From Candidatus Acetothermia bacterium (GTDB lineage: Bacteria > Bipolaricaulota > Bipolaricaulia > M55B111), in contig JBKGZT010000014.1 of the NCBI GenBank assembly GCA_046543235.1, positions 1-26,426 on the forward strand: 26,426 bases of DNA. Direction: 5' to 3'. The notes under the pieces were generated by a model. That model saw nothing but the letters and a program-made list of their open reading frames with translations. It made no database searches and was not told the origin of the DNA. The stretch's first letter is position 1. Every line of letters begins with the position of its first letter. Positions 5,529 to 20,529 of the stretch are shown one piece after another. A program made the translations under genes and the position numbers.

Positions 5529-6323
5529 TTATCTCGTCGTCCCGGATTTTAGTTCCCTGACAAAGTCTCGAACCTCATCCGGCCTCCTCCCTTCGGCTAT
5601 TCTTTTTACGATGGCGGAACCTACTATCGCTCCGTCCGCGCCCGCTTCCACCACCCGTGATATTCCCTCGGGGCTGGATAGACCGAAGCCGACGCAGATT
5701 GGAAGCTCCCCGCTTAGCTGAGCCGTGACGGATTTGATTGCCTCCGTCGTTAACTTCGCTACCTCCTCCTGGGCGCCGGTAGTGCCGGGCCGGGCCACGA
5801 GGTAAAGGAAGCCGGTCGAGCGTTCTGCGACCTCCTTTATCCTTGCCTGCGACGTGGCGGGAGTGACCAGGAACGGCGTCGCCACGGAGTGCTTTCTCGC
5901 CAGCTCGATGTAACTATTTCCTTCCTCGACGGGGAGGTCGGGTAAAATTACGCCGTCCACCCCGGTTTCGTCGCACCTATTTAAGAACTTCTCCTCGCCG
6001 AACTGGAACACCGGATTGTAGTAGCTCATTAACACTATTGGGGTCTCAATTGATCGTTTAGCCCTCTCGACTATTCGAAAGACGCTTGCCAGGTCTCCGG
6101 TCTCATCTATTGCTCTGTTCCCGGCTGCTTGAATCGTCTGGCCGTCCGCCACCGGGTCGGTGTAAGGTACGCCGAATTCGACGACGTCCGCGCCCCCCGC
6201 CGATAGGGATTTTAAGTATTCGACGGACTTCTTCGGACTCGGGTCCCCGGCCATCAAGTAAGCTATCAGAGCACCTTCCCCTTTCTCGTTCGTCGCTTTA
6301 ATCATCCTGGCGACTTCGTTCAT
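5529..6323 (-). CDS. trpA: Tryptophan synthase alpha subunit
   Basis: [36 protein letters not shown]. Confidence 0.98.
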
Positions 6324-7498
6324 TTTAACACCTTCCTGACGGTTTCCAGGTCCTTATCGCCGCGGCCGGACAGGGTGATCACCAGAGTCTCCTCGGAATC
6401 CATTTCCGAAGCTATTCTTAATCCTGCTTTGATCGCGTGTGCCGGCTCGAGTGCCGGAATTATTCCCTCGGTCTCCGTAAGTGTTTGAAAACCATCCAGC
6501 GCCCCTTCGTCCGAGACGCTGACGTAATCCGCCCGTCCTACTTCCTGGAACAGGGCGTGTTCCGGGCCGACTCCGGGGTAGTCGAGGCCGGCCGAGATCG
6601 AACTGGTTTCCTCGATCTGACCTCCGTCGTCCTGGAGCAGTTTGGTTCTCGCGCCGTGTAGCACTCCTTTGCTTCCGTAAGACAGGCTGGCCGCGTTACC
6701 TTCTTCGTTTCCTCCCGCCTCTACCCCGGTGAGGTCGACCTCTACGTCATCCGCGAATGGATAGAATGTTCCCATGGCGTTGCTTCCGCCCCCGACGCAG
6801 GCGACCAGGTGGTCCGGAAGACCTTCTCCTCTATTTTTCATCTGGGATTTGATTTCATCGCCGATCACCCGCTGGAAGTCCCGAACGATCATGGGATAAG
6901 GGTGCGGACCGACGACGGAACCTACCAGATAGTGGGTATCCTCCACGCTGCCGGACCAGTCACGGAGGGCTTCGTTGATCGCGTCCTTTAGTGTCTTACT
7001 TCCCGTCTCGACCTCGTGGACCTCTGCCCCTAACAGCTCCATCCTGAAGACGTTTGGCTTCTGTCTCTCGACGTCCACCGCTCCCATGTAGACCTCGACG
7101 TCCAGTCCGAGGACCGCGCCGGCCAGGGATGTCGCCACGCCGTGCTGGCCCGCTCCGGTTTCGCATATCAACCGTTCCTTGCCGGATCTCTTTGCCAGGA
7201 GGGCCTGTCCCATCACGTTGTTGAACTTGTGGGCTCCTCCGTGAAGGAGGTCTTCGCGTTTCAGAAAGATTCTCGCACCTCCTGCCACCTTTGTCAGGTT
7301 TTCGGCTTCGTAAAGCGGGGAGGGACGACCGCCGTAGTTTCTATTGTAGCTTTCCAGCTCGCTATTGAACTCCGGGTCGTTCCGGTATTCTTCGTGGACC
7401 TTCTCCAGGTCCTTCAGCGCCGGGCGAAGGATTTCGGGGACGTAGCTCCCCCCGAATTCCCCGTACTTTCCGGCCTTTGGATACTCGCTAAGTTGCAT
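6320..7498 (-). CDS. trpB: Tryptophan synthase beta subunit
   Basis: [16 protein letters not shown] (PLP lysine), [34 protein letters not shown]. Confidence 0.99.
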
Positions 7499-8141
7499 TT
7501 TCTTTCACCTCTTTTAGGAATTGGTTCGTTTTTTCGGGGGACTTTTCGCCGGCTATTTCCAGACCCGAGGCCGCGTCCACGGCGTAGGGTTTGACCTTTT
7601 CCACTGCTTTTCGTACGTTTCCCGGTTCGAGTCCGCCCGCCAGGATCACGGGAAATGGATCGACCGCTTTCCGGATCCTTCTGCTGAGTTCCCAGTCGTG
7701 GGTTTCTCCCGTACCCCCGGAGCGTCCTCCCGATTTGCTATCAAGCAGAATCCCGCTCACCGGGGATTCTTTCAGGTCCCGGGCCTTCCGTTCCAGCTCT
7801 TCACCGGAGCCCTCGACCGGTAGAAGGCCAATCAGGTCGATTAATCCCGGGACGACAGAGTCGATCTTCCTCAACTCGCCCTCGGAAAGTCTGGAATGCA
7901 ACTGGAGGTAGTCCGGGGCTACTCGCTTCGATAATCGGGCCAGCTTTTCAGGTTTGGTTTCCGTGGTTACCAGGACCGTATCGGTGAATAGGGGGACGCT
8001 TTCTACCAGCTTTGCTGCCCTTCCCGGAGTTAGGTTTCTCGATGATTCCGGAGTGGAGATTATGAAACCGACCGCGTCCGCTCCGGCGCTCGCGTCGATG
8101 TCGTCCCTGGTCTGATTCCCGCATATCTTGACTTTAACCAT
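7488..8141 (-). CDS. trpF: Phosphoribosylanthranilate isomerase
   Basis: [36 protein letters not shown]. Confidence 0.97.
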
Positions 8142-8922
8142 TGATTACACCGACCAGGCGTTTCAGGTGCTCTGCCGGGTTCCCGGCCCGGGAAAGGGAG
8201 GTGCCGACGAGGAAGGCATCCGCGCCGGCCCGACGTAGGAAATCGACGTCTTCTCCGGCTGATATTCCACTCATCGACCAGACTATCCGGTCCTTGTCGG
8301 CTTCGGCGAGAATCTCTGCAGTGGTGGATAGGGTGACTTCTAGGCTCCTTAGGTCTCGGTTGTTGATTCCGATCATCTCCGCCTCGGTTTCTAGAGAGCT
8401 TTTATACTCCTCCAGGTCGTTTACCTCCAGCAGGACTTCCAGTTCCAGCTGCTTGGCGTGTTCAATAGCCTCCTCCAGTTCCAAGAACGTCTGGCCTCGC
8501 TTGAACAGGCGGTAAATCAGGAGGACCGCGTCCGCCCCTGCTTCCCGGGCCCGGCGAATCTGCGAATAATCCATTATGAAATCCTTCATCAGGGTTGGGG
8601 CTCCCAGATCCGAAACTTCTTCCAGGTTATGCGTCGAGCCACCGAAGTGATCCGGATCGGTCAGGACTGAAAAACCGGCGGCACCTCCATCGAGGTAAAG
8701 TCGGGCGAGCTCCTTTGGCTTGAACTTTCCTTCGAACAGACTTCCCCGAGAAGGCGATTCCGGCTTGAGCTCGGCGATGACCGGGTTTAGGGTCCGACCC
8801 CCTATCTCCTCGACGAAGGAACGCCGGGGATTTCCGTCCGCGTCCGTCCCTTTTGGTTCGTAGTAACCGGACTTGATCCTATCTCTTGCCGAATTAGCTA
8901 GCTCGTCAAGGACGTCGTTCAT
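8134..8922 (-). CDS. trpC: Indole-3-glycerol phosphate synthase
   Basis: IAELKPESPS, SVLTD, LMKDFI, GADAVLLI, GINNRDL, FLVGTSL. Confidence 0.96.
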   Translation of the reverse strand: MNDVLDELANSARDRIKSGYYEPKGTDADGNPRRSFVEEIGGRTLNPVIAELKPESPSRGSLFEGKFKPKELARLYLDGGAAGFSVLTDPDHFGGSTHNLEEVSDLGAPTLMKDFIMDYSQIRRAREAGADAVLLIYRLFKRGQTFLELEEAIEHAKQLELEVLLEVNDLEEYKSSLETEAEMIGINNRDLRSLEVTLSTTAEILAEADKDRIVWSMSGISAGEDVDFLRRAGADAFLVGTSLSRAGNPAEHLKRLVGVING

Positions 8923-9992
8923 CTTGTCTTGGTGCCGGGGACTTCCCGCTCCAGGTCTTTGAACTTCTCCTCGTTACCTGCCATGGCAACGAGTTCCCTG
9001 GCAGCCCGGTATCCTCGACCGGAATAGATGGTCTTCCTGGCGACTTCGATTCCCTCTCCGATGGAGTCAGCTCCACCGGCTACGTATATTCCGGCACCGG
9101 CGTTTAGCAGGACGATGTCCCTCCGCTTTCCGGTATTTTCGCCCGAGAGGACCTCGAGGGTCAGTCTTGCGCTCTCCTCAGGTGGTAGGTCTCCAACGGC
9201 TGAGGGTTCGACTTCCGGCAGACCGAAGTCCCTCGGTTTGATTTCGTAGTGGTCGATTTCCCCGTTCCCCAGCTCCCCCACGTAGGTCCTCCCTGCCGTG
9301 GAGATCTCGTCCATACCCGGTTCGCCGTGGACGACCAGAGCCCGGCTCACGCCCAGCTTTTTCAGGACGAAAGGGAACTTCTCGACCAGCTCCGGTTCGT
9401 AGACCCCCATCAGATGTCTGTCGGCCGAAGCGGGGTTCGTCAGAGGGCCGAGCAGGTTGAACACGGTTCTTATCCCCAGTTCACTTCTGGGCCCTGCGGC
9501 GTGCTTCATCGCCGGATGGTGATTCGGGGCGTAAAGGAAGCCCAGCCCCGTCTCTTCGATTGACCGCTCGACCATTCCCGGGTCGGCGTCCAGATTTACG
9601 CCCAGGGCCTCGAGCAGGTCGGCGCTCCCGCTACGGCTGGTGTTGGACCGGTTGCCGTGTTTTGCCACGGGGTAACCGGCACCGGCGACGACGAAGGTAC
9701 TGATAGTCGAGATGTTGAAGGTCTTTACCGACGCTCCTCCTGTGCCGCACATGTCCATCAGTTCTCCGTCTACTTTGGGATCTATCCTGACTGCCTTGTG
9801 CCTCATCGTTTCCGCAAAGGCGGCGATCTCTCCCGGAGATTCTCCCTTGGCCTTGAGCCCTGCAAGTAAAGCACCTATATTGGTCTCGGCCGCGTCTCCG
9901 CTCATTAGTTTGTCCATGGCTTCCCGTGCGAGGTCGGGTTCCAGTCCCTCTCCGCTTGTAACCTTTTCTATTGCTTTCGACATCGTCTTCAT
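8919..9992 (-). CDS. trpD: Anthranilate phosphoribosyltransferase
   Basis: DMCGTGG, FNIST, KHGNRSNTSRSGSAD, RTVFNLLGPLTNP. Confidence 0.98.
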   Translation of the reverse strand: MKTMSKAIEKVTSGEGLEPDLAREAMDKLMSGDAAETNIGALLAGLKAKGESPGEIAAFAETMRHKAVRIDPKVDGELMDMCGTGGASVKTFNISTISTFVVAGAGYPVAKHGNRSNTSRSGSADLLEALGVNLDADPGMVERSIEETGLGFLYAPNHHPAMKHAAGPRSELGIRTVFNLLGPLTNPASADRHLMGVYEPELVEKFPFVLKKLGVSRALVVHGEPGMDEISTAGRTYVGELGNGEIDHYEIKPRDFGLPEVEPSAVGDLPPEESARLTLEVLSGENTGKRRDIVLLNAGAGIYVAGGADSIGEGIEVARKTIYSGRGYRAARELVAMAGNEEKFKDLEREVPGTKTR

Positions 9993-10615
9993 CGTGTATC
10001 ACTCCTGCAAATCCTTAGAAAGTTCTTCAAAATTTCCATTCCGTTCTCGGTCAGAATTGACTCCGGATGGAACTGCACGCCGTGGATCGGGTAGTCGTCG
10101 TGGCGAATTCCCATTATTTCGCCCTCCGTCGTCCTGGCGGTTACGTTTATCTTTTCCGGCAGGGATTCGGGTGAAAGCACCAGAGAGTGGTAGCGCGCCG
10201 CGGTAAACTCATCGGGTAGCCCGGCGAAAACCCCCCGGCAATCATGCTGGATCTTGCTCGTCTTGCCGTGGTAGAGGTCCTTGGCCGGTTTGACCCTTCC
10301 GCCGAACGCCACTCCGATTCCCTGATGTCCCAGGCAAACGCCGATCGTCGGGACTTCCGGAGAGAGCGTTTTCAGTACTTCGAGGGAAAGTCCAAAATAT
10401 CTGGTATCGTTTGGCCGGCCGGGTCCCGGGGAAATCAACAGTCCTTCGGGTTCGAGTTTTCTCAGTCTTTTTAGTTCTATCTCGTCGTTCCGGAATACGA
10501 GGGGCTCCAGTCCGAGCTCCCCCAGGTACTGGACGAGGTTGTAGGTAAAGGAATCGTAGTTGTCTATTACGACGAATCTTCTCTTCTTTTGACTATTGGG
10601 TTTCACGGGTATCAC
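9989..10615 (-). CDS. trpG: Anthranilate synthase component II (glutamine amidotransferase)
   Basis: IDNYDSFTYNL, SPGPG, GVCLGHQ, RYHSL, QFHPES. Confidence 0.97.
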   Translation of the reverse strand: MIPVKPNSQKKRRFVVIDNYDSFTYNLVQYLGELGLEPLVFRNDEIELKRLRKLEPEGLLISPGPGRPNDTRYFGLSLEVLKTLSPEVPTIGVCLGHQGIGVAFGGRVKPAKDLYHGKTSKIQHDCRGVFAGLPDEFTAARYHSLVLSPESLPEKINVTARTTEGEIMGIRHDDYPIHGVQFHPESILTENGMEILKNFLRICRSDTR

Positions 10616-12044
10616 CGCCCGAAATAGCTCTCTTCAGAGCCGCCAGCTTGTGATTTGTTTCTTCCCATTCCCCTGCAGGGTCCGAGTCCGCTACTATACC
10701 CGCACCCGCACGGAGCGAGAGCCGATTTCCGTACGTGAACAGGCTGCGGATCGTGATGCAGGTATCCAGGTCGCCGGTAAACGAGAGGTATCCGACTCCC
10801 CCTCCGTACGGTCCTCTGCGGCTGACTTCGAGCTCTTCGATTATTTCCATCGCTCGAATTTTTGGAGCTCCCGAGAGGGTTCCGGCCGGGAAGACCGTTT
10901 CGAAGGCGTCCATGGCGGACTTCTCCTCGGAAAGGGTGCCGTTTACTCTGGAGACCAGGTGCTGGACGTGGCTGAATTCCTTTACTTCCATGTATTCGGG
11001 TACTGTGACGGTTCCGTAATCGGCCACCCTGCCCAAGTCGTTTCGGGCCAGGTCGACGAGCATGTTGTGTTCCGCGCTTTCTTTTTCATCCGAAATCAGC
11101 TCCCGCCTCAGGTCGGCTTTCTCCTTCTTCGTCTCCCCCAGCGGTCGCGTGCCGGCAATCGGGTACGTCGTAACCTCGTCGTTCCTGACGGAGACAAGCT
11201 TTTCGGGGCTCGATCCTATAATCCGTCGATCGCCGAACTTCAGATGGTACATGTAAGGTGAAGGGTTTATGTCCCGGAGTCTTCGGTAGGCCTGGAAGGG
11301 GTCGCCGTCAAAAGCCCCGGAGAGTTTACGGGAGAGAACCGTCTGGTAGACGTCGCCGGCTCGTATATAGTTCCGAATTTCCTGGACGGCGGATTTGTAA
11401 GCTTGCCTCTCAAAGTCCGACTTCAATTTTTCTAGATCTAGTCCCTCCCCCTTTTTTTCGGGAGGTTCGGCGAGTCGTCTTTCCAACTCCGAGGATCGGT
11501 CCCCGTCGTAGGAGAAATACGTCAGGCTGTCGTCCCGGGAATCGTGAACGATCCCATCCAGGTATAGACCTGTCTCTAATTCGGGATAAGGGCCCTCGGA
11601 CCCGGGAGGCGAAAACTTCTCCATGTATTTAATCAGGTCGTAACCGGCATAACCCACCAACCCACCCAGGAACTTCCCCCGATCCGGTGTGGGGACTTTT
11701 ACGAGCCTCCTCTCCAGCTCCTTTAAAGCGGGCAACGGGTTTGAGGTTTTAAGAACTTCCTCTCCGTTTTCCTCGAAGCTTCCTTCGCTAAAAGTCAGGG
11801 TAGCTCGGGGGTTGAATCCGAGAAAGGTGTGTTTGGCCAGTTCTTCGGGTCCGGCAGTGCTTTCCAGAATGAAGCTATTTTCGAACCCCGCGTAAAGCCG
11901 ACGGTAGATCTCGAAGGGATCGTTTAGGTCCCAGTCGAGACGCTTTTTGGTGAGGGAAAGTTCACCTTTCGCAAAGGGAAGGAAATCACTCAGAAGTTGA
12001 TGTCTGGAACGCTTGGCTGTTTGGGGTGAGCCAAACCCGATCAC
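10593..12044 (-). CDS. trpE: Anthranilate synthase component I (true initiation site uncertain, see findings)
   Basis: ILES and NPSPYM feedback motifs, PIAGTR, EHNMLVDLARND, FPAGTLSGAPK, AGAGIVADS; first gene of the trp operon. Confidence 0.96.
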   Translation of the reverse strand: MIGFGSPQTAKRSRHQLLSDFLPFAKGELSLTKKRLDWDLNDPFEIYRRLYAGFENSFILESTAGPEELAKHTFLGFNPRATLTFSEGSFEENGEEVLKTSNPLPALKELERRLVKVPTPDRGKFLGGLVGYAGYDLIKYMEKFSPPGSEGPYPELETGLYLDGIVHDSRDDSLTYFSYDGDRSSELERRLAEPPEKKGEGLDLEKLKSDFERQAYKSAVQEIRNYIRAGDVYQTVLSRKLSGAFDGDPFQAYRRLRDINPSPYMYHLKFGDRRIIGSSPEKLVSVRNDEVTTYPIAGTRPLGETKKEKADLRRELISDEKESAEHNMLVDLARNDLGRVADYGTVTVPEYMEVKEFSHVQHLVSRVNGTLSEEKSAMDAFETVFPAGTLSGAPKIRAMEIIEELEVSRRGPYGGGVGYLSFTGDLDTCITIRSLFTYGNRLSLRAGAGIVADSDPAGEWEETNHKLAALKRAISGGDTRETQ

Positions 12045-12069
12045 CCAAATTTTTCATGCGTTCTTTCAT
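11986..12069 (-). CDS. Candidate second upstream ORF MKERMKNLGDRVWLTPNSQAFQTSTSE, overlapping trpE out of frame
   Basis: GGAGGT SD (12080-12075) 5 nt before ATG 12069; single TGG at 12033-12031; TGA at 11988-11986. Confidence 0.5.
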   Translation of the reverse strand: MKERMKNLGDRVWLTPNSQAFQTSTSE

Positions 12070-12103
12070 TCTGCACCTCCGTAAGTTTCTTGGAATTGAA
12101 AAT

Positions 12104-12133
12104 AAAAAAACTACGGGCAGAAATTGCCCATAG
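12104..12133 (-). terminator. Attenuator (intrinsic) terminator of the trp leader
   Basis: Minus strand CTATGGGCA-ATTTC-TGCCCGTAG followed by T7. Confidence 0.9.
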
Positions 12134-12198
12134 TGTAAGCTAAACTGGTTTGGAGCCACTTTAGGGTCGTACTCCAAACCTTACGTGAGCCAGAGCCA
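12104..12198 (-). promoter_or_regulatory. trp ribosome-mediated transcription attenuator
   Basis: Hairpin GGTTTGGAGT...GCTCCAAACC (12180-12147) right after the leader stop; alternative pairing of CCCTAAAGTGGCT with AGCTTACACTATGGG takes up the terminator 5' arm. Confidence 0.8.
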
Positions 12199-12264
12199 GT
12201 GAAAGTTCTTGTACAATGCTTTTGTTTTTGCCGTAACTTTTACCTCCAACTTTAAAGTGTTCAT
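12181..12264 (-). CDS. trpL: trp leader peptide MNTLKLEVKVTAKTKALYKNFHWLWLT (27 aa)
   Basis: Translated by hand; TGG CTC TGG near the 3' end; AGAGAGGT upstream; lies between the promoter and the attenuator. Confidence 0.85.
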   Translation of the reverse strand: MNTLKLEVKVTAKTKALYKNFHWLWLT

Positions 12265-12756: not shown

Positions 12757-13218
12757 CTACTCGATTTCCACTTCAAAGGTATCTTCCTCGGTGAGCGATT
12801 CGCTCAATTCAACTTGAATATCGAGCACGCCGTCTTCAAAGGTACCCTTTAACTTCTCGTTACTATCCACTTCTTCGGGGAGCGCGAAGGTCCTTCTGAA
12901 CTTACCGTAGCGCCTCCCTCTGTGGATGTAATTGGCGTCCTCTTTTTCACCTTTCTGTCTGGTTTCACCGGTGACGATCAGTTGATCGCCCTTGACCTTG
13001 GTTTCGATGTCGTCCTTGCTTAATCCCGGCAGCTCCATTTCGTAATGGAGCACGCCGTCTTCCTCGTAAATGTCGGTGTTACCGAATCTTCCCAGACTTG
13101 AACTGCCAAAGAAGCTCCTGTCCAGATCCTTGAAGAGTTCGTCCAGCAGTCCACCGCTGCTAAAGGGAGATGGAACCTGATCGTCCGAACTCCTTCGTCT
13201 TCTGTTGGGTAGTGCCAT
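12757..13218 (-). CDS. Hsp20/alpha-crystallin small heat shock protein
   Basis: TDIYE, ELPGLSKDDI, RRYGKFRRTFALP, FEDGVLDI; GGAGGT SD 7 nt before ATG 13218 (ORF track starts at 13233). Confidence 0.95.
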   Translation of the reverse strand: MALPNRRRRSSDDQVPSPFSSGGLLDELFKDLDRSFFGSSSLGRFGNTDIYEEDGVLHYEMELPGLSKDDIETKVKGDQLIVTGETRQKGEKEDANYIHRGRRYGKFRRTFALPEEVDSNEKLKGTFEDGVLDIQVELSESLTEEDTFEVEIE

Positions 13219-13246
13219 TATGGCCACCTCCATTTATTTTTTCATT

Positions 13247-13443: not shown

Positions 13444-13851
13444 CTATCCCTCACAGACGTTAATCTGGTTAACCTGCTCCTCCGGAACTCCACAGTAACC
13501 AAGCAGCTCTTCGTTTTGTTGGACGGTTCGGCAGATACGACATATCCTCTTCGACAGGTCATCGACCTCCTCTTGCACGAGGTCCTCGGCCAGGTCTGTT
13601 ATCATTTTGTAGGTTCTGGGGTCCCTCTTTCTGATCTTCCCCCGCTTTTCACCCACGTACTGCGAAACCGCCGACTGGCTTATCCCGAGGAGGTTGCCCA
13701 CGGCCTTCTGTGTCAGGTCCATCTTCACCAGTTCCCTGGAGAGGCACGCTCTGATACAGGGGACTACGTGCCAGATAGCGACCTCGCATGGCTGTTTTAG
13801 GACAGGTTTCGTCTTGTCCTTGCCGCTCTTAAGCTGTTGCTCGCTACTCAT
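13444..13851 (-). CDS. HTH transcriptional regulator (archaeal-type, COG2522-like) with multiple Cys
   Basis: PCEVAIWHVVPCIRA N-terminus, HTH LTQKAVGNLLGISQSAVSQY, C-terminal CRIC; ATG 13851 preferred over TTG 13860. Confidence 0.8.
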   Translation of the reverse strand: MSSEQQLKSGKDKTKPVLKQPCEVAIWHVVPCIRACLSRELVKMDLTQKAVGNLLGISQSAVSQYVGEKRGKIRKRDPRTYKMITDLAEDLVQEEVDDLSKRICRICRTVQQNEELLGYCGVPEEQVNQINVCEG

Positions 13852-13993
13852 ATTTGACAAATCACCGGATGTTATTATAAGCTGGTCCTAAGTGGAAGTC
13901 CGTACCTGATCGTTCTTTTTTTGGCTGGTCTTGCCAATTTTGGCTCGGAAAACTCCAATTTTATCCTCTATACAATAATTCTGTTAACCGCCA

Positions 13994-17216: not shown

Positions 17217-18554
17217 TTGTCCGAGAAAAATTTAACCGACTCGGGAGATGTATTTACAAGAAGGAATTTCCTCAAAATAGCCGGCGGGTCTCTGCTGGCG
17301 CTAACGGTGCCGGGTCTGGGATCGGAAGGTCTCGGTGCTTCCTCGAGTGATAAGCTGGAACTTGGCGGTATATTCTCGCTTTCCGGTCCTAATGCCCCCG
17401 TCGGCAGGACGATCAGGGACGGGGCGAGACTCGCCGTGGAGAGGATCAACCGAGAGGGTGGAATAGGGGGAGAGATAGAGCTCGATCTGGTTGTCGAGGA
17501 CGGAAAGACTTCTCAGACGGGCGCTTCCGAGGCCGCCAGAAGGTTGGCCAACAGGGGCGGGATAGGCTTCGCCCTCGGACCACTGATCGGTACCCACGGA
17601 CGGGCAACTCAGCCGATACTCGGAGGTGCCGAGATCCCGCAGATGTTCTTTGGAACGGACGTCGGCTTTACGGATAGACACGACGAGTACCCCCTCTCAT
17701 TTCGCTTCGGGACTCAAACCGCGCTACAATTCGTTCCACCGCTCGTATACGCGGTCGAAGAGAGGGACCAGGGGAAACTGTTCCTGCTCACCCCGAACAA
17801 CCAGCAGGGAGGGTCGATCGAGGAGGTAGTGCAAAACGCGGTTTCCCGCCTGGAGGAAGGAGAACTTGTCGGTTCCGAGTCCTACCCGCCGTTCAACCGG
17901 GACTTTTCCTCTTTGACCTCCCGGGTCTGGAATTCCGAAGCCGAGGGAGTAGTTATAGGTACCGGGGTTCCCGCCGACCTGGTTTCGGTCGCCCGTGAGT
18001 TCGATCGCCAGGGACTTGACCCTACCGAATTCGGCTACTATACGGGTCAGACTCCCAACGGAGCCGTCGCCTTTGAGAACCAGATAATGGACGAGGGGTT
18101 GGGAGAAGGTATAATATACTCCTGGCATTATGATAAGCGAGAATACGGACGTGTTTTCGAGAGGTCGGATCCGCCTGAGGAGGCGGAGAAAATGGAGGCG
18201 GCTTTCGAGGAGAGGTTCGGTTCCCCGCCGGATTCGGCGCCCTCCGCCAGCTGGGGATGGGGTGGTGTCCGTATAATTAAACAGGGAATCGAGGGATTGA
18301 TGGAAGAGCGTGGGAAGGAAGAAGTCCTGGAGATGGACTTAGGAACCCAGCTTCCATCCGAAGTAGTGGAATACCTGCTGCCGGAGAGTAAGGACGAGGT
18401 CGGTCCCGAAATAGAAACTCCCTTCGGGAACGCCGGGTTCCTCAGCTGCGGTCAGTTCGACGTCGGACTTGGCGTTGGGACGGTAAAGGACGGTGAAAGG
18501 TACCTCCTGAAGGATAGGGGCTATGGCAGGGAGATAATCCCACCCCTGTGCTGA
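17217..18554 (+). CDS. Liv-type (HAAT) ABC transporter substrate-binding protein, Tat-exported
   Basis: TRRNFLK signal; GGIFSLSGPNA, LAVERINREGGIGG, DFSSL; GAGGTG SD favours TTG 17217 (ORF track starts at 17208). Confidence 0.9.
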   Translation: MSEKNLTDSGDVFTRRNFLKIAGGSLLALTVPGLGSEGLGASSSDKLELGGIFSLSGPNAPVGRTIRDGARLAVERINREGGIGGEIELDLVVEDGKTSQTGASEAARRLANRGGIGFALGPLIGTHGRATQPILGGAEIPQMFFGTDVGFTDRHDEYPLSFRFGTQTALQFVPPLVYAVEERDQGKLFLLTPNNQQGGSIEEVVQNAVSRLEEGELVGSESYPPFNRDFSSLTSRVWNSEAEGVVIGTGVPADLVSVAREFDRQGLDPTEFGYYTGQTPNGAVAFENQIMDEGLGEGIIYSWHYDKREYGRVFERSDPPEEAEKMEAAFEERFGSPPDSAPSASWGWGGVRIIKQGIEGLMEERGKEEVLEMDLGTQLPSEVVEYLLPESKDEVGPEIETPFGNAGFLSCGQFDVGLGVGTVKDGERYLLKDRGYGREIIPPLC

Positions 18555-18567
18555 GGCGGGCGACACC

Positions 18568-20529
18568 GTGGGAGAGTTGACGAACCTGACCAGCTTTCTG
18601 TTCAACGGACTTCATCTGGGCGCTTACTACGCCATCGTGGCGGCAGGTGTCGCCATAGTCTTCGGCGTACTTGAGGTTGGTGACGTCGCCCAGGGCGGCT
18701 TGTTCACCCTCGGGGCTTACCTTACCTATTCCGTGACCTCGATACTCGGGTTGAACTATTTTCTCGCTCCGATACTCGTTGTACCAGTTACTGCTTCCGT
18801 CAGCGTCTTTTTCGGGGTGGTCGTCTACCGGAAGCTTCGGGATCACGGGATTGCGCCGACCTTCCTGGGGGCGGTGAGCCTGTTGATCGTTCTCCAGAGC
18901 CTCCTCGCGACGGCCTTCGGAGAGAGGGCGAAGACCGTAAGCTCGCCGCTGCTTCCTCGAACCGTTAAGATTGGACAGGCCAGGATATTTTCCCACAAGC
19001 TATTCGTGATTTTCGCGTCCCTCCTGCTGGCGTTCCTGGTCTGGTACTGGTTGAAAAGGACCCGCCAGGGCAAGTCGTTACGCGCCGTGGCTGGAAACAG
19101 GGAGGCGGCTTCCTTGGTGGGGGTAGATCCGAAGAAGGCGGCTATTATTGGGTTCGGAGTGGCTGGGGGTCTTTCCGGGCTCGCCGGCTTCCTGACCGCG
19201 CCTGTCTATCCGATTACGCCCTTTGCCGGACGGTTGACCGTACTCAAGGCATTCGTAATTTCAAGGCTGGCCCTGGGATCGGTTCCGGCGGTGGTCGGGC
19301 TGGCCCTGGTAATTGGCCTGGCCGAATCTCTGGCCTCCGGATACTTCCTGGGGGAGCTGAGCAACCTGATACCCTTCCTCCTCCTGGTAGTCGTAGCTCT
19401 GGCCAGGCCTGACACCATCGGGCCGGAGGAGAGGTATAGGGTACGAAACAGCTCCAGCTGGCGGATTCGTCTCTCCCTTCCCGGCGGTCAAAGTCCGGGC
19501 TGGCTCATCGGAGCCGGCGCCTTTGCGCTGCCTTTCCTTTTTGATTTGCCCTCCTATTTCTTTCACCTATCCATAATGGCGGGGACATCGGCGATGGTCG
19601 TCACCGGCGTCGACCTGGTCTATGGCTACGTCGGAACTCCGACGCTGGTCCATGGTGCCCTGTTCGGGGTCGGGGCTTATACCTCTGCCTTGCTTACGGG
19701 ATCTCTTGGTAGTTCTGTTTTTATTTCACTGGTGGCTGGAATCCTGGCCAGTGGGCTTGCGGGAGTACTGATCGGCGTTCTTGGCGTCAGGACCGGGAGG
19801 CACTGGACCTCGTTTACCTTCATTATGACGATAGTCTTTACGATAGTAGTGACCAACCTGGAGTCGATTACCGGAGGAGTAGGCGGGGTTTACGGGATTC
19901 CGGAACTTAAAGTAGGTTTCCCCGGTTTGGGCTGGCTGGCTTTGAACCCTTTTCAAAACAAGGAATCATACTACCTGCTGGTTCTCGGAGTTCTTAGTCT
20001 GGTGCTTTTGTTGAAAAGGGGGCTATTGGCCTCCTGGTTTGGGAGGGCCCTGAGGGCGATCCGGGAGAACGAGGTCCTTGCGGAGTCCGTGGGGATACCG
20101 GTCGACCTGTACAGGGTAGGGGGTTTTACGATCAGCGCCGGAATAGCCGGGGCTGCCGGATCGCTTTTCGCTCACTACGTCGCCTACATTCATCCGGAGT
20201 TATTCAACTTTATAACCTCCTTCGAGTTCCTGTTGATGAACAGGGTGGGAGGGATCGGGAGCGTAGTCGGCCCGATCCTGGGGTCCACTTCCGTTCTGAC
20301 GCTGGAAGAGTTGACGAAGGGACTTAGTCCTTACCTGGGGAGGGTGGTGACCGGCATTTTGCTAATATTGACACTGATCTATCTTCCGGGTGGAGCCCTT
20401 GGATTCCTGAAGAGGGTTTCCGCAAGGTTTCTTCCCGACGGACTGGTTCGGTTTAGGGGGAACGAGACCGAGTTAGACCGTCCCCGGAACGGGGACGAAA
20501 GAGGTGAAGGGAATGAAGGAGGTCCTTAG
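18568..20529 (+). CDS. Fused LivH-LivM-type ABC permease
   Basis: Two hydrophobic halves, each with the loop motif (GKSLRAVAGNREAASLVGVD; GRALRAIRENEVLAESVGIP). Confidence 0.92.
   Translation: MGELTNLTSFLFNGLHLGAYYAIVAAGVAIVFGVLEVGDVAQGGLFTLGAYLTYSVTSILGLNYFLAPILVVPVTASVSVFFGVVVYRKLRDHGIAPTFLGAVSLLIVLQSLLATAFGERAKTVSSPLLPRTVKIGQARIFSHKLFVIFASLLLAFLVWYWLKRTRQGKSLRAVAGNREAASLVGVDPKKAAIIGFGVAGGLSGLAGFLTAPVYPITPFAGRLTVLKAFVISRLALGSVPAVVGLALVIGLAESLASGYFLGELSNLIPFLLLVVVALARPDTIGPEERYRVRNSSSWRIRLSLPGGQSPGWLIGAGAFALPFLFDLPSYFFHLSIMAGTSAMVVTGVDLVYGYVGTPTLVHGALFGVGAYTSALLTGSLGSSVFISLVAGILASGLAGVLIGVLGVRTGRHWTSFTFIMTIVFTIVVTNLESITGGVGGVYGIPELKVGFPGLGWLALNPFQNKESYYLLVLGVLSLVLLLKRGLLASWFGRALRAIRENEVLAESVGIPVDLYRVGGFTISAGIAGAAGSLFAHYVAYIHPELFNFITSFEFLLMNRVGGIGSVVGPILGSTSVLTLEELTKGLSPYLGRVVTGILLILTLIYLPGGALGFLKRVSARFLPDGLVRFRGNETELDRPRNGDERGEGNEGGP

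Follow-up and report, generated by a model that had tools for sequence, protein, structure and literature searches.

How is a trpE gene translated when the only strong ribosome site in front of it serves another reading frame? The question is raised by a 26,426-nucleotide stretch of DNA, here called the window (positions 1 to 26,426 of contig JBKGZT010000014.1), from the metagenome-assembled genome (MAG) GCA_046543235.1 of a Candidatus Acetothermia bacterium (GTDB lineage Bacteria; Bipolaricaulota; Bipolaricaulia; M55B111). The window holds a trp operon on its minus strand, on which all coordinates below are read. A first inspection of this DNA, the sequence-only reading, had noticed that a strong Shine–Dalgarno (SD) sequence, GGAGGTG (12080-12074), precedes an ATG (12069-12067) that opens a 27-codon open reading frame (ORF) ending at TGA 11988-11986. 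It had also noticed that trpE lies in the +1 frame relative to this short ORF, that a TGA closes the trpE frame three codons 5′ of GTG 12044-12042, and that this GTG lacks a good SD. All of these observations hold, and the GTG is the sole start codon of the trpE frame in the window. We propose that TrpE is probably reached by a programmed +1 frameshift of the prfB type at GTT TGG C, where a hungry UGG codon in the ribosomal A site would sense Trp-tRNA, in series with a WxW attenuator.

Is the arrangement peculiar to this contig? A TrpE homology search in 41 related genomes, the window's own included, gave a match in 17, and 16 oriented loci, the window's own among them, hold the 5′ end of the gene; the motif was not used as a search key. 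All 16 loci display a GGAGG-type SD, an ATG, 8–10 unconserved codons and then (G/A)GTG(A/G)TCG(G/A)GTTTGGC, which is near-identical at the base level though TrpE identity is just 43–66%. The spacing from ATG to GTG is 25 nt in two loci, 28 nt in 13 and 31 nt in one, that is, 1 modulo 3 in every case, and trpE always lies +1 to the short ORF. The GTG is kept throughout and is the first start codon of the trpE frame in 14 loci. The short ORFs at trpE are 18–37 codons long and stop 29–86 nt beyond the GTG; therefore, their stops are not placed for translational coupling. The alignment of relatives that the sequence-only reading had suggested as a check thus finds the out-of-frame SD-ATG and GTTTGGC kept at each of the 16 loci.

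The same reading had entertained a mundane explanation, namely that an extra A in the A5 run at 12054-12050 is an assembly error or arose by recent mutation; a sequencing error, or a mutation that inactivates the gene, would be of the same kind. The run is present, and in the window one A fewer would fuse ATG 12069 to trpE. However, the run is not conserved in the relatives, and yet the 1-modulo-3 offset is found in all of them. In addition, the contigs of four sequencing runs span 11900-12211 or more, at a word depth of 28–48, with no inserted or deleted letter; the four runs come from one study, possibly including the source sample, and it is their contigs, not raw reads, that were compared. 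The out-of-frame arrangement is real, and the probability that we assign to an error is close to nil.

The nature of the motif becomes apparent from the gene of release factor 2 (RF2). The prfB gene of the same genome carries a textbook +1 site, GAA ATA GGT GAT TAC CTT TGA C, after which the RF2 body continues in the +1 frame. In the class, prfB was found in 60 of 61 sampled genomes, and 28 of the 30 loci fetched carry a +1 site consisting of a hexamer, 3 nt, CTT or GTT, TGA and C. The hexamer is GGTGAT or GGTGAC in 15 sites, GGTGAG in two, GCTGAT or GCGGAT in seven (family f5), GGGGAT in two, and CGTGAT and AGCGAT in one each. The 3-nt spacer is CGC (15), TAC or TAT (10), CAC (2) or CGG (1), the slippery codon is CTT in 27 sites and GTT in one (L320), and the C after TGA is found in 28 of 28. 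The peptide encoded is G-D-R-L-stop in the commonest prfB form and G-D-R-(L/V)-W in the trp module. In one genome (G020), the prfB site, GGTGATCGGGTTTGAC, and the trpE module, GGTGATCGGGTTTGGC, differ in just one of 16 bases. The two cassettes have in common the SD-like hexamer, its 3-nt spacing, NUU-U at the slippery position, the 3′ C and the frame, and in prfB, too, the hexamer brings with it an in-frame GTG. There is no premature in-frame UGA in the trp module, whose A-site codon is TGG; on the other hand, the internal SD-like element 3 nt upstream and the 3′ C are present, and a functional protein without an SD-led start of its own follows in the +1 frame at the loci of TrpE, of TrpRS and of one DAHP synthase (L071). 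Since the A site holds TGG instead of UGA, the module is not a prfB site, but it would work like one. Judged by this likeness, the trp module is a prfB cassette with UGA changed to UGG.

A few features of the prfB loci themselves (L293 in the window's genome, contig C86, ~56500-56535, plus strand; L295–L323 elsewhere in the class) are worth recording. In this class, the internal stimulator of prfB is GGUGAU instead of the bacterial consensus AGGGGG. The f5 prfB sites have the weaker GCUGAU or GCGGAU, yet the f5 trpS cassette keeps GGUGAU. A script found no shift site in two of the 30 loci, L295 and L302, the latter near a contig end; prfB of L295 may lack the frameshift.

Which other genes carry the trp module? 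Across the class, a pattern made up of GGTG, a start codon and the motif matched 52 times, in 42 of the 184 genomes; its reversed control had no match. Matches occur in families f1, f3, f5, f6 (one genus), f7, f9 and f10; two f4 genomes (G148 and G175) have one match each, in both cases without an SD-led short ORF. In all, 54 non-redundant instances were collected, 11 of whose 16 positions are fixed by the collecting pattern. The genes after the cassette are trpE, trpS (tryptophan-tRNA ligase, TIGR00233, 333 bits), the gene of a TrpB-like pyridoxal-phosphate enzyme (NF009057, 657–738 bits) and that of DAHP synthase (NF006421, 447 and 420 bits); all are Trp-related. The exact 15-mer of the window recurs once more in its own genome, on contig C17, and is found in most f1 genomes. 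A loose search of that genome for hexamer-N3-NTTT gave 70 matches, among which only prfB, trpE and the TrpB-like leader join a short 0-frame ORF to a new +1 ORF, and none is a version of the cassette with another A-site codon.

For trpS, we used the 30 best loci of the class, found by protein homology without the motif. In f5 (genera g7 and g12), all 15 loci have GGT GAT CGG CTT TGG C, save for CGT in place of the first codon at one locus and GGT in place of the second at another. In f8, all four loci have GGT GAT CG(T/C) CTT TGG, followed by G in three and C in one, and a variant, AGT GAA CGT CTT TGG T, is found in G086. By contrast, the 10 loci from f2, f4, f6, f7 and f9 all lack a cassette, and eight of them have an ordinary SD-led start. 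Since the cassette is present in trpS genes without a ribosome site of their own and absent where such a site exists, it follows that the gene has lost its own site where the module is present. In L266, the cassette GTG is the only start codon of the trpS frame; L276 has no ATG and just one further in-frame GTG after the short-ORF stop.

DAHP synthase is connected to the cassette in two genomes. In G028 (L071, C31, ~17797-18810), DAHP synthase continues the +1 frame of the cassette without a break, after 54 codons of low complexity, and its gene is upstream of trpE on the contig; in G085 (L070, C50), DAHP synthase is unfused and lies ~270 nt downstream of an 89-codon +1 ORF. One switch is thus wired to DAHP synthase in two ways. 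With regard to f5, several genomes (G022, G025, G031, G040 and others) carry the cassette at trpS, and the four f5 genomes searched, at least 90% complete, gave no TrpE match, other trp genes being outside that search; they may be Trp auxotrophs that tune only the ligase.

Matches to the motif that turned out to be spurious were also recorded. One-mismatch variants of the 15-mer (GTC, GTA, GCG, ATG, TTG and others) could have revealed modules without the GTG, but the 29 places fetched all lack an SD-led short ORF or lie inside long ORFs and are chance matches of the VIGFG type. In another set of 30 loci, 26 are likewise chance matches, and the other four (L052, L053, L054 and L056) are true trpE modules. 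In a global scan with one genome per species, inspection of the 80 loci listed, from at least 118 stretches, gave at least eight true modules. Among the matches listed, the records of these eight bear without exception the names Bipolaricaulota, Acetothermia, Fraserbacteria or "uncultured Thermotogae" (MAGs), and the remaining 72 loci either sit within genes or have no SD-start architecture.

The pattern of substitutions indicates which frame is read on either side of the TGG. The Arg codon is CGG in 49 of the 54 instances, CGA in two, CGC in two and CGT in one, all synonymous in the 0 frame, whereas the overlapping +1 residue varies among G, E, A, V and D. Since the changes are silent in one frame and the residue is free in the other, the 0 frame is under selection at this point. 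The conserved peptide that the cassette encodes is (G/S)(D/E/G)R(V/L)W. The codon preceding TGG is GTT in 37 instances, as in the window, and CTT in the remaining 17, and the A-site codon is TGG in every trpE locus, every trpS cassette and every one of the 54. A C follows TGG in 53 of the 54, though the 0-frame residue that it begins varies (L, P, H or R), and in the +1 frame the same C is the synonymous site of GGC. The constraint is therefore on the nucleotide itself. At trpS, the following base is G in three of the four f8 loci and T in G086.

For the part downstream of the TGG, we turn to the TrpB-like leader. In f1, its 0-frame ORF has just 10–13 codons (for example, M-N-F-G-D-R-V-W-L-G-stop), as at most trpS loci, while the +1 ORF runs for 42–64 codons and ends in PEQLEPAW in 15 of 17 sequences. 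The block was found with a wobble-tolerant expression, so the observation is that 15 of the 17 fit it. The distance from the cassette to PEQLEPAW takes eight values between 108 and 141 nt, all multiples of 3. Variation within the 24-nt block is confined to third-codon positions, all seven of which vary, the 17 other positions being constant. Distances that preserve the frame, together with substitutions of the coding type, argue that at this leader translation in the +1 frame sets in at the cassette. Downstream of the TGG, then, the +1 frame is, on this comparative evidence, the coding frame.

The PEQLEPAW leaders deserve a description in their own right. In the window's genome, the locus is on contig C17 at ~14193-13900, minus strand (L057), outside the window, and the others are L058–L063, L080, L088, L091–L093 and L103–L105. 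The +1 ORF ends in a strictly conserved (F/S)(F/H)PEQLEPAW, the 30–40 residues before it are not conserved, and the peptide brings a second Trp codon, 0–9 codons, usually 2–3, before the stop. It may be a second stall site or an arrest peptide.

Where would ribosomes enter? The predicted pairing of the 16S tail with the 18 nt that precede a start has a mean of −13.1 kcal/mol for the short ORFs of the 54 instances and of −3.7 kcal/mol for the motif GTG, against a background of −5.1 kcal/mol at random genome positions; in 50 of the 54, the strongest SD pairing is at the 0-frame start. The GTG belongs to GGTGAT, whose position 9 nt ahead of the landing codon TTT is enough to put it in frame. The hexamer is complementary to the 16S 3′ tail ...GGAUCACCUCCUUUCU, as read in two genomes of the class, whose 16S 3′ end is GGATCACCTCCTTTCT; the two belong to other families, the window's MAG and three f1 genomes having no assembled 16S.

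No conserved RNA structure accounts for the invariant bases of the module. The sequence-only reading had described a hairpin, TTTGGGTGA/TCACCCCAAA, around the GTG, and had suggested that translation of the short ORF might melt it. The hairpin exists, but it is imperfect (one extra C) and is not the predicted minimum-energy fold, with z = 0.0 against shuffles. Nor is there a conserved fold around the cassette in the 16 trpE loci (alifold −2.0; single-sequence z from +1.0 to −2.3), which leaves the melting proposal with no conserved hairpin to act on. No conserved fold was found between the PEQLEPAW block and the TrpB-like SD (alifold −2.2), and an Rfam search of leaders L001, L057 and L064 at a permissive threshold gave no T-box or other family over the module. 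Similarly, the W-L-T of the short ORF, which had been taken as an echo of the leader peptide, is there in the window but is not general, the relatives reading WLA, WLG or WPN.

In L057, the Rfam search returned a sub-threshold tmRNA match away from the module and an overlapping, far weaker permuted-tmRNA match. The former (RF00023, 2370-2445 of the locus, contig C17) scores 42.1 bits against a gathering score of 47 and lies ~1.3 kb from the TrpB-like leader; it covers 76 nt of the locus though model positions 1–374 are given, and it is probably a fragment or a divergent tmRNA.

What mechanism would account for these features? By the accepted model, +1 shifting is a race between A-site decoding and P-site slippage, and it is raised by hungry codons (PMC5009743). 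From the anatomy described above, we infer that the shift occurs and that it responds to Trp-tRNA, in the following manner. Ribosomes would start at the SD-led ATG (12069) and read GGT GAT CGG GTT. Once the P site contains tRNA-Val on GUU and the A site UGG, GGUGAU just behind them would pair with the 16S 3′ tail, as in prfB. When charged tRNA-Trp is plentiful, UGG would be decoded, the 0 frame would be kept as far as the nearby stop (TGA 11988-11986) and no TrpE would be made. When it is scarce, the A site would stay empty and the P-site tRNA would slip from GUU to UUU, so that GGC is read next and the ribosome goes on into trpE and the operon. The change from UGA to UGG would make charged tRNA-Trp the competitor of slippage, and Trp would be sensed twice in series, by the leader-peptide attenuator and, at the level of translation, by the cassette. 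In the incomplete tRNA set of the window's MAG, tRNA-Trp(CCA), tRNA-Val(GAC) and tRNA-Leu(GAG) are each represented once. The sequence-only reading had already proposed a Trp-sensing shift at GUU-UGG-C (...GDRV, then GSP...), and of its suggestions this is the one that comparison supports best, the module being class-wide, confined to Trp-related genes and a near-copy of the prfB site; the internal GGTGAT, the parallel with prfB and the other loci go beyond it.

At trpS, the scheme would amount to an autoregulatory loop, as TrpRS makes the Trp-tRNA that reads UGG, and an SD-less ATG past the short-ORF stop may allow reinitiation and, with it, basal synthesis of TrpRS. Where the gene is unfused, a ribosome that has shifted would translate a leader ORF; we can only guess that protection from Rho would open the downstream gene. 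It seems somewhat likely to us that a whole bacterial lineage, with records titled Bipolaricaulota, Acetothermia or Fraserbacteria, runs its Trp regulon on such a frameshift switch, the prfB cassette having been copied, or re-invented, with UGG. Its outputs would be TrpE, TrpRS, DAHP synthase or a leader peptide that opens the TrpB-like gene. For the phylum, a first isolate is reported (bioRxiv 10.1101/2025.11.21.689855).

Several points weigh against this proposal. The support is comparative throughout and drawn from sequence, and the related genomes are, by kinship, non-independent samples. At the 11 positions fixed by the pattern, invariance in the table of 54 instances is circular, and for those positions the homology-defined trpE and trpS sets have been used. 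UGG is a normal sense codon, at which basal shifting may be very low, and natural swings of Trp-tRNA would have to suffice for switching. A tRNA-Val(GAC) moved onto UUU would have a first-position C-U mismatch, and GUU is the slippery codon of just one of the 28 prfB sites. In E. coli RF2 reporters, E-site codons with two G:C pairs shifted least, and the trp cassette has CGG in this position; yet 15 of the 28 prfB sites of the class use CGC.

Could trpE simply start at GTG 12044, with the SD-led short ORF as an overlapping upstream ORF that competes with it or tunes it? The GTG is found in all 54 instances, where the pattern fixes it, and in all 16 homology-defined trpE loci, in most of which it comes first in its frame. 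It is invariant and inseparable from the SD-like hexamer, which leaves room for initiation there. In the short TrpB-like leaders, moreover, the SD is only ~11–14 nt away (our count), and seven of the 17 have, 3 nt before the GTG, a TTG with a pairing of −9.9 to −12.8 kcal/mol that is ~11 nt from the same SD (our count). At trpE and trpS, however, the SD lies ~33–40 nt and ~26–28 nt upstream, respectively (our count), and the GTG has no SD of its own, the mean pairing there being weaker than the background. A ribosome paused at UGG would cover the GTG, and regulation would go in the wrong direction. Finally, a GTG start leaves unexplained the 3′ C, the NUU-only codon, the synonymous Arg codons over a free +1 residue 3 and the identity with prfB, whose sites bear the same GTG as a by-product. 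We consider this explanation improbable. We think equally little of the idea that the shift is constitutive, that is, recoding of fixed efficiency, or a relic, that sets the level of expression or adds an N-terminal tag without any sensing of Trp. The anatomy of the cassette supports shifting as such, not regulation, and given the poverty of start codons in L266 and L276, the essential TrpRS may depend on basal shifting. A fixed rate would not need the codon of the pathway's product, however, and every instance has UGG in the A site; trpE, trpS, TrpB-like and DAHP synthase genes are the sole ones to follow it, and the window's genome has no other-codon version.

A different explanation is that the short ORF encodes an arrest peptide akin to TnaC, (G/S)(D/E/G)R(V/L)W, which controls the gene by occlusion, Rho or reinitiation without a change of frame. 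Indeed, a role as nascent peptide is conceivable for the conserved (D/E/G)-R-(V/L)-W, whose residues persist although some codons change: four codons serve for Arg, G086 has GAA for GAT, and W is preceded by either V or L. The gene is unfused at the TrpB-like loci and at one DAHP synthase locus, and a second conserved peptide, PEQLEPAW, ends the +1 ORF. Besides, 13 of the 15 f5 trpS loci keep an in-frame, SD-less ATG a few codons before the conserved protein body and ~8–17 nt past the short-ORF stop (our count), so that reinitiation is a second possible route to TrpRS. With an arrest peptide, nevertheless, ribosomes would have no means of entering the +1 frame, the translation of which starts at the cassette and is the sole way to TrpE. 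In addition, the GTT/CTT-only codon before W and the constant C after TGG are constraints at the nucleotide level, and since prfB of the same genomes encodes G-D-R-L, the peptide may have been inherited from the prfB cassette or be constrained like it. We hold an arrest peptide to be quite unlikely, even a little more so than the two preceding explanations, and keep to a Trp-sensing frameshift as the probable one.

The features of the window are collected in Table 1. The family scan of TrpE gave TIGR01820 (473.9 bits) and TIGR00564 (456.8 bits) as the best matches, both somewhat below the curated cut-offs, with the profile match starting at residue 43 of the GTG-started reading. The run of overlapping ORFs extends from 12044 to 5529 in the order trpE-G-D-C-F-B-A; the names after trpE come from ORF position and a reading of the translations, not from a family scan.

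Table 1. Positions of the trp leader, candidate shift cassette and operon in the window.
Feature	Positions	Strand	Remark
Leader peptide ORF, first tier, MNTLKLEVKVTAKTKALYKNFHWLWLT	12181..12264	-	Tandem Trp codons (WxW), ends HWLWLT
Terminator-like hairpin TATGGGC...GCCCGTA + T7	12104..12135	-	First-tier attenuator
Shine–Dalgarno GGAGGTG	12074..12080	-	Serves ATG 12069
0-frame short ORF, 27 codons, MKERMKNLGDRVWLTPNSQAFQTSTSE	11986..12069	-	Carries the putative shift cassette; stop TGA 11988-11986
Internal Shine–Dalgarno-like hexamer GGTGAT (0-frame codons GGT GAT)	12040..12045	-	3 nt before the slippery codon
CGG	12037..12039	-	Would be the E-site codon at the moment of the shift
Candidate shift heptamer GTT TGG C	12030..12036	-	P-site GUU would re-pair on UUU; A-site UGG; 3′ C completes +1 codon GGC
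trpE (anthranilate synthase component I)	10593..12035	-	+1 frame, from the proposed landing codon TTT to the stop
Rest of operon, six overlapping ORFs, layout like trpG, D, C, F, B, A	5529..10615	-	

The first tier of control is of a familiar kind. The element 12264-12104 fits the description of a trpL-type attenuator, namely a Trp-codon ORF followed by a terminator hairpin. Leader ORFs ending in W-x-W (in one case WW) are found 5′ of 15 of the 16 trpE loci, the remaining one (L009) being cut by a contig end, and TATGGG...CCCATAG with a T-run lies 90–116 nt upstream of the motif GTG in 13 of the 16. The frameshift module itself does not fit that description, since it has a single Trp codon and no conserved structure, and no terminator lies between it and trpE.

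With regard to the surroundings of the leader, the contigs of all four runs have C at 12160 and 12162, where the window has T on the plus strand, and two runs have further differences at 12212 and 12231. Positions 12160 and 12162 sit between the leader-peptide stop and the terminator, and the four differences look like strain variants in the attenuator region. Two genes on the minus strand, at 12757-13233 and 13444-13860, are the upstream neighbours. The first encodes a small heat-shock protein, Hsp14/Hsp20-like (E 1e-17, below cut-off), and the other a protein of 138 residues that matches, though faintly, a sigma-70 region-4-like helix-turn-helix (E 5e-4).

What would such a switch mean? Programmed +1 frameshifts that serve as sensors are known for release factor 2 and for polyamines (antizyme). 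As regards aminoacyl-tRNA supply, frameshifting has, to our knowledge, been discussed only as an error. Full-text literature searches, with subscription journals outside their coverage, gave no description of a frameshift at a Trp codon before trp genes, nor of the motif. With respect to natural trans-frame proteins made by hungry-codon shifting under starvation, the 2016 recoding review says that "no examples are known" (PMC5009743). If our proposal is true, the trp module would be the first case in nature where hungry-codon frameshifting serves regulation as a sensor, and a fourth coupling of amino acid supply to gene expression, beside attenuation, the T-box and protein repressors or TRAP; at trpS, it would close an autoregulatory loop like that of RF2. 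Should the shift be confirmed, the mechanisms of amino acid control listed in textbooks would be joined by a new principle. One base exchanged in the A-site codon would be seen to suffice for putting a recoding cassette to a new use, and levels of charged tRNA could be reported by a small, portable part of ~16 nt and a short ORF. There is a practical consequence for annotation, as gene callers will start trpE, trpS and DAHP synthase at a spurious in-frame GTG or call them truncated.

How does the module compare with known systems? It shares with trpL attenuation the sensing of charged tRNA-Trp through the speed of the ribosome at Trp codons in a short leader ORF. However, trpL works by alternative hairpins and transcription termination, whereas the module has one Trp codon and would act on the reading frame. 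The T-box also ties Trp-related genes to Trp-tRNA, and TnaC ties them to Trp itself, both through the 5′ leader; TnaC differs in that it needs no change of frame and has other conserved residues. The T-box is named in the abstract of PMC10327191.

Closer in principle is the hungry-codon frameshifting of Gallant and colleagues, in which an A site left empty at limiting aminoacyl-tRNA promotes a shift of a single nucleotide; in the review (PMC5009743), it appears as an error process on laboratory constructs. The CUU-AGG-C site of yeast Ty1 is closer still, as a P-site CUU slips to the codon that overlaps it while an A-site sense codon is slow for want of its tRNA, and the first +1 codon is GGC, according to the same review (PMC5009743). 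Nevertheless, Ty1 is eukaryotic, has no stimulator that pairs with rRNA and makes a Gag-Pol fusion, and its hunger is built in by a rare tRNA-Arg instead of being a metabolic signal.

The closest relative is prfB. According to PMC12421855 and PMC5009743, its site has an internal SD-like element 3 nt before NUU-U, a slow A-site codon, a C and the protein in the +1 frame, and all of these recur here: GGTGAT-NNN-CTT-TGA-C in prfB corresponds to GGTGAT-CGN-(C/G)TT-TGG-C in the trp cassette, in the same codon phase. At trpS the likeness extends to the logic of the loop, since the product restores the factor that reads the A-site codon. The differences are equally clear. The A-site codon of the trp cassette is the sense codon UGG, and the sensed factor would be charged tRNA-Trp instead of a release factor; unshifted ribosomes would not terminate at the site but continue and stop later. 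In addition, the cassette resides in a leader ORF of 10–42 codons before several different genes, family f1 has GUU for CUU, and at some loci the +1 product is merely a leader peptide.

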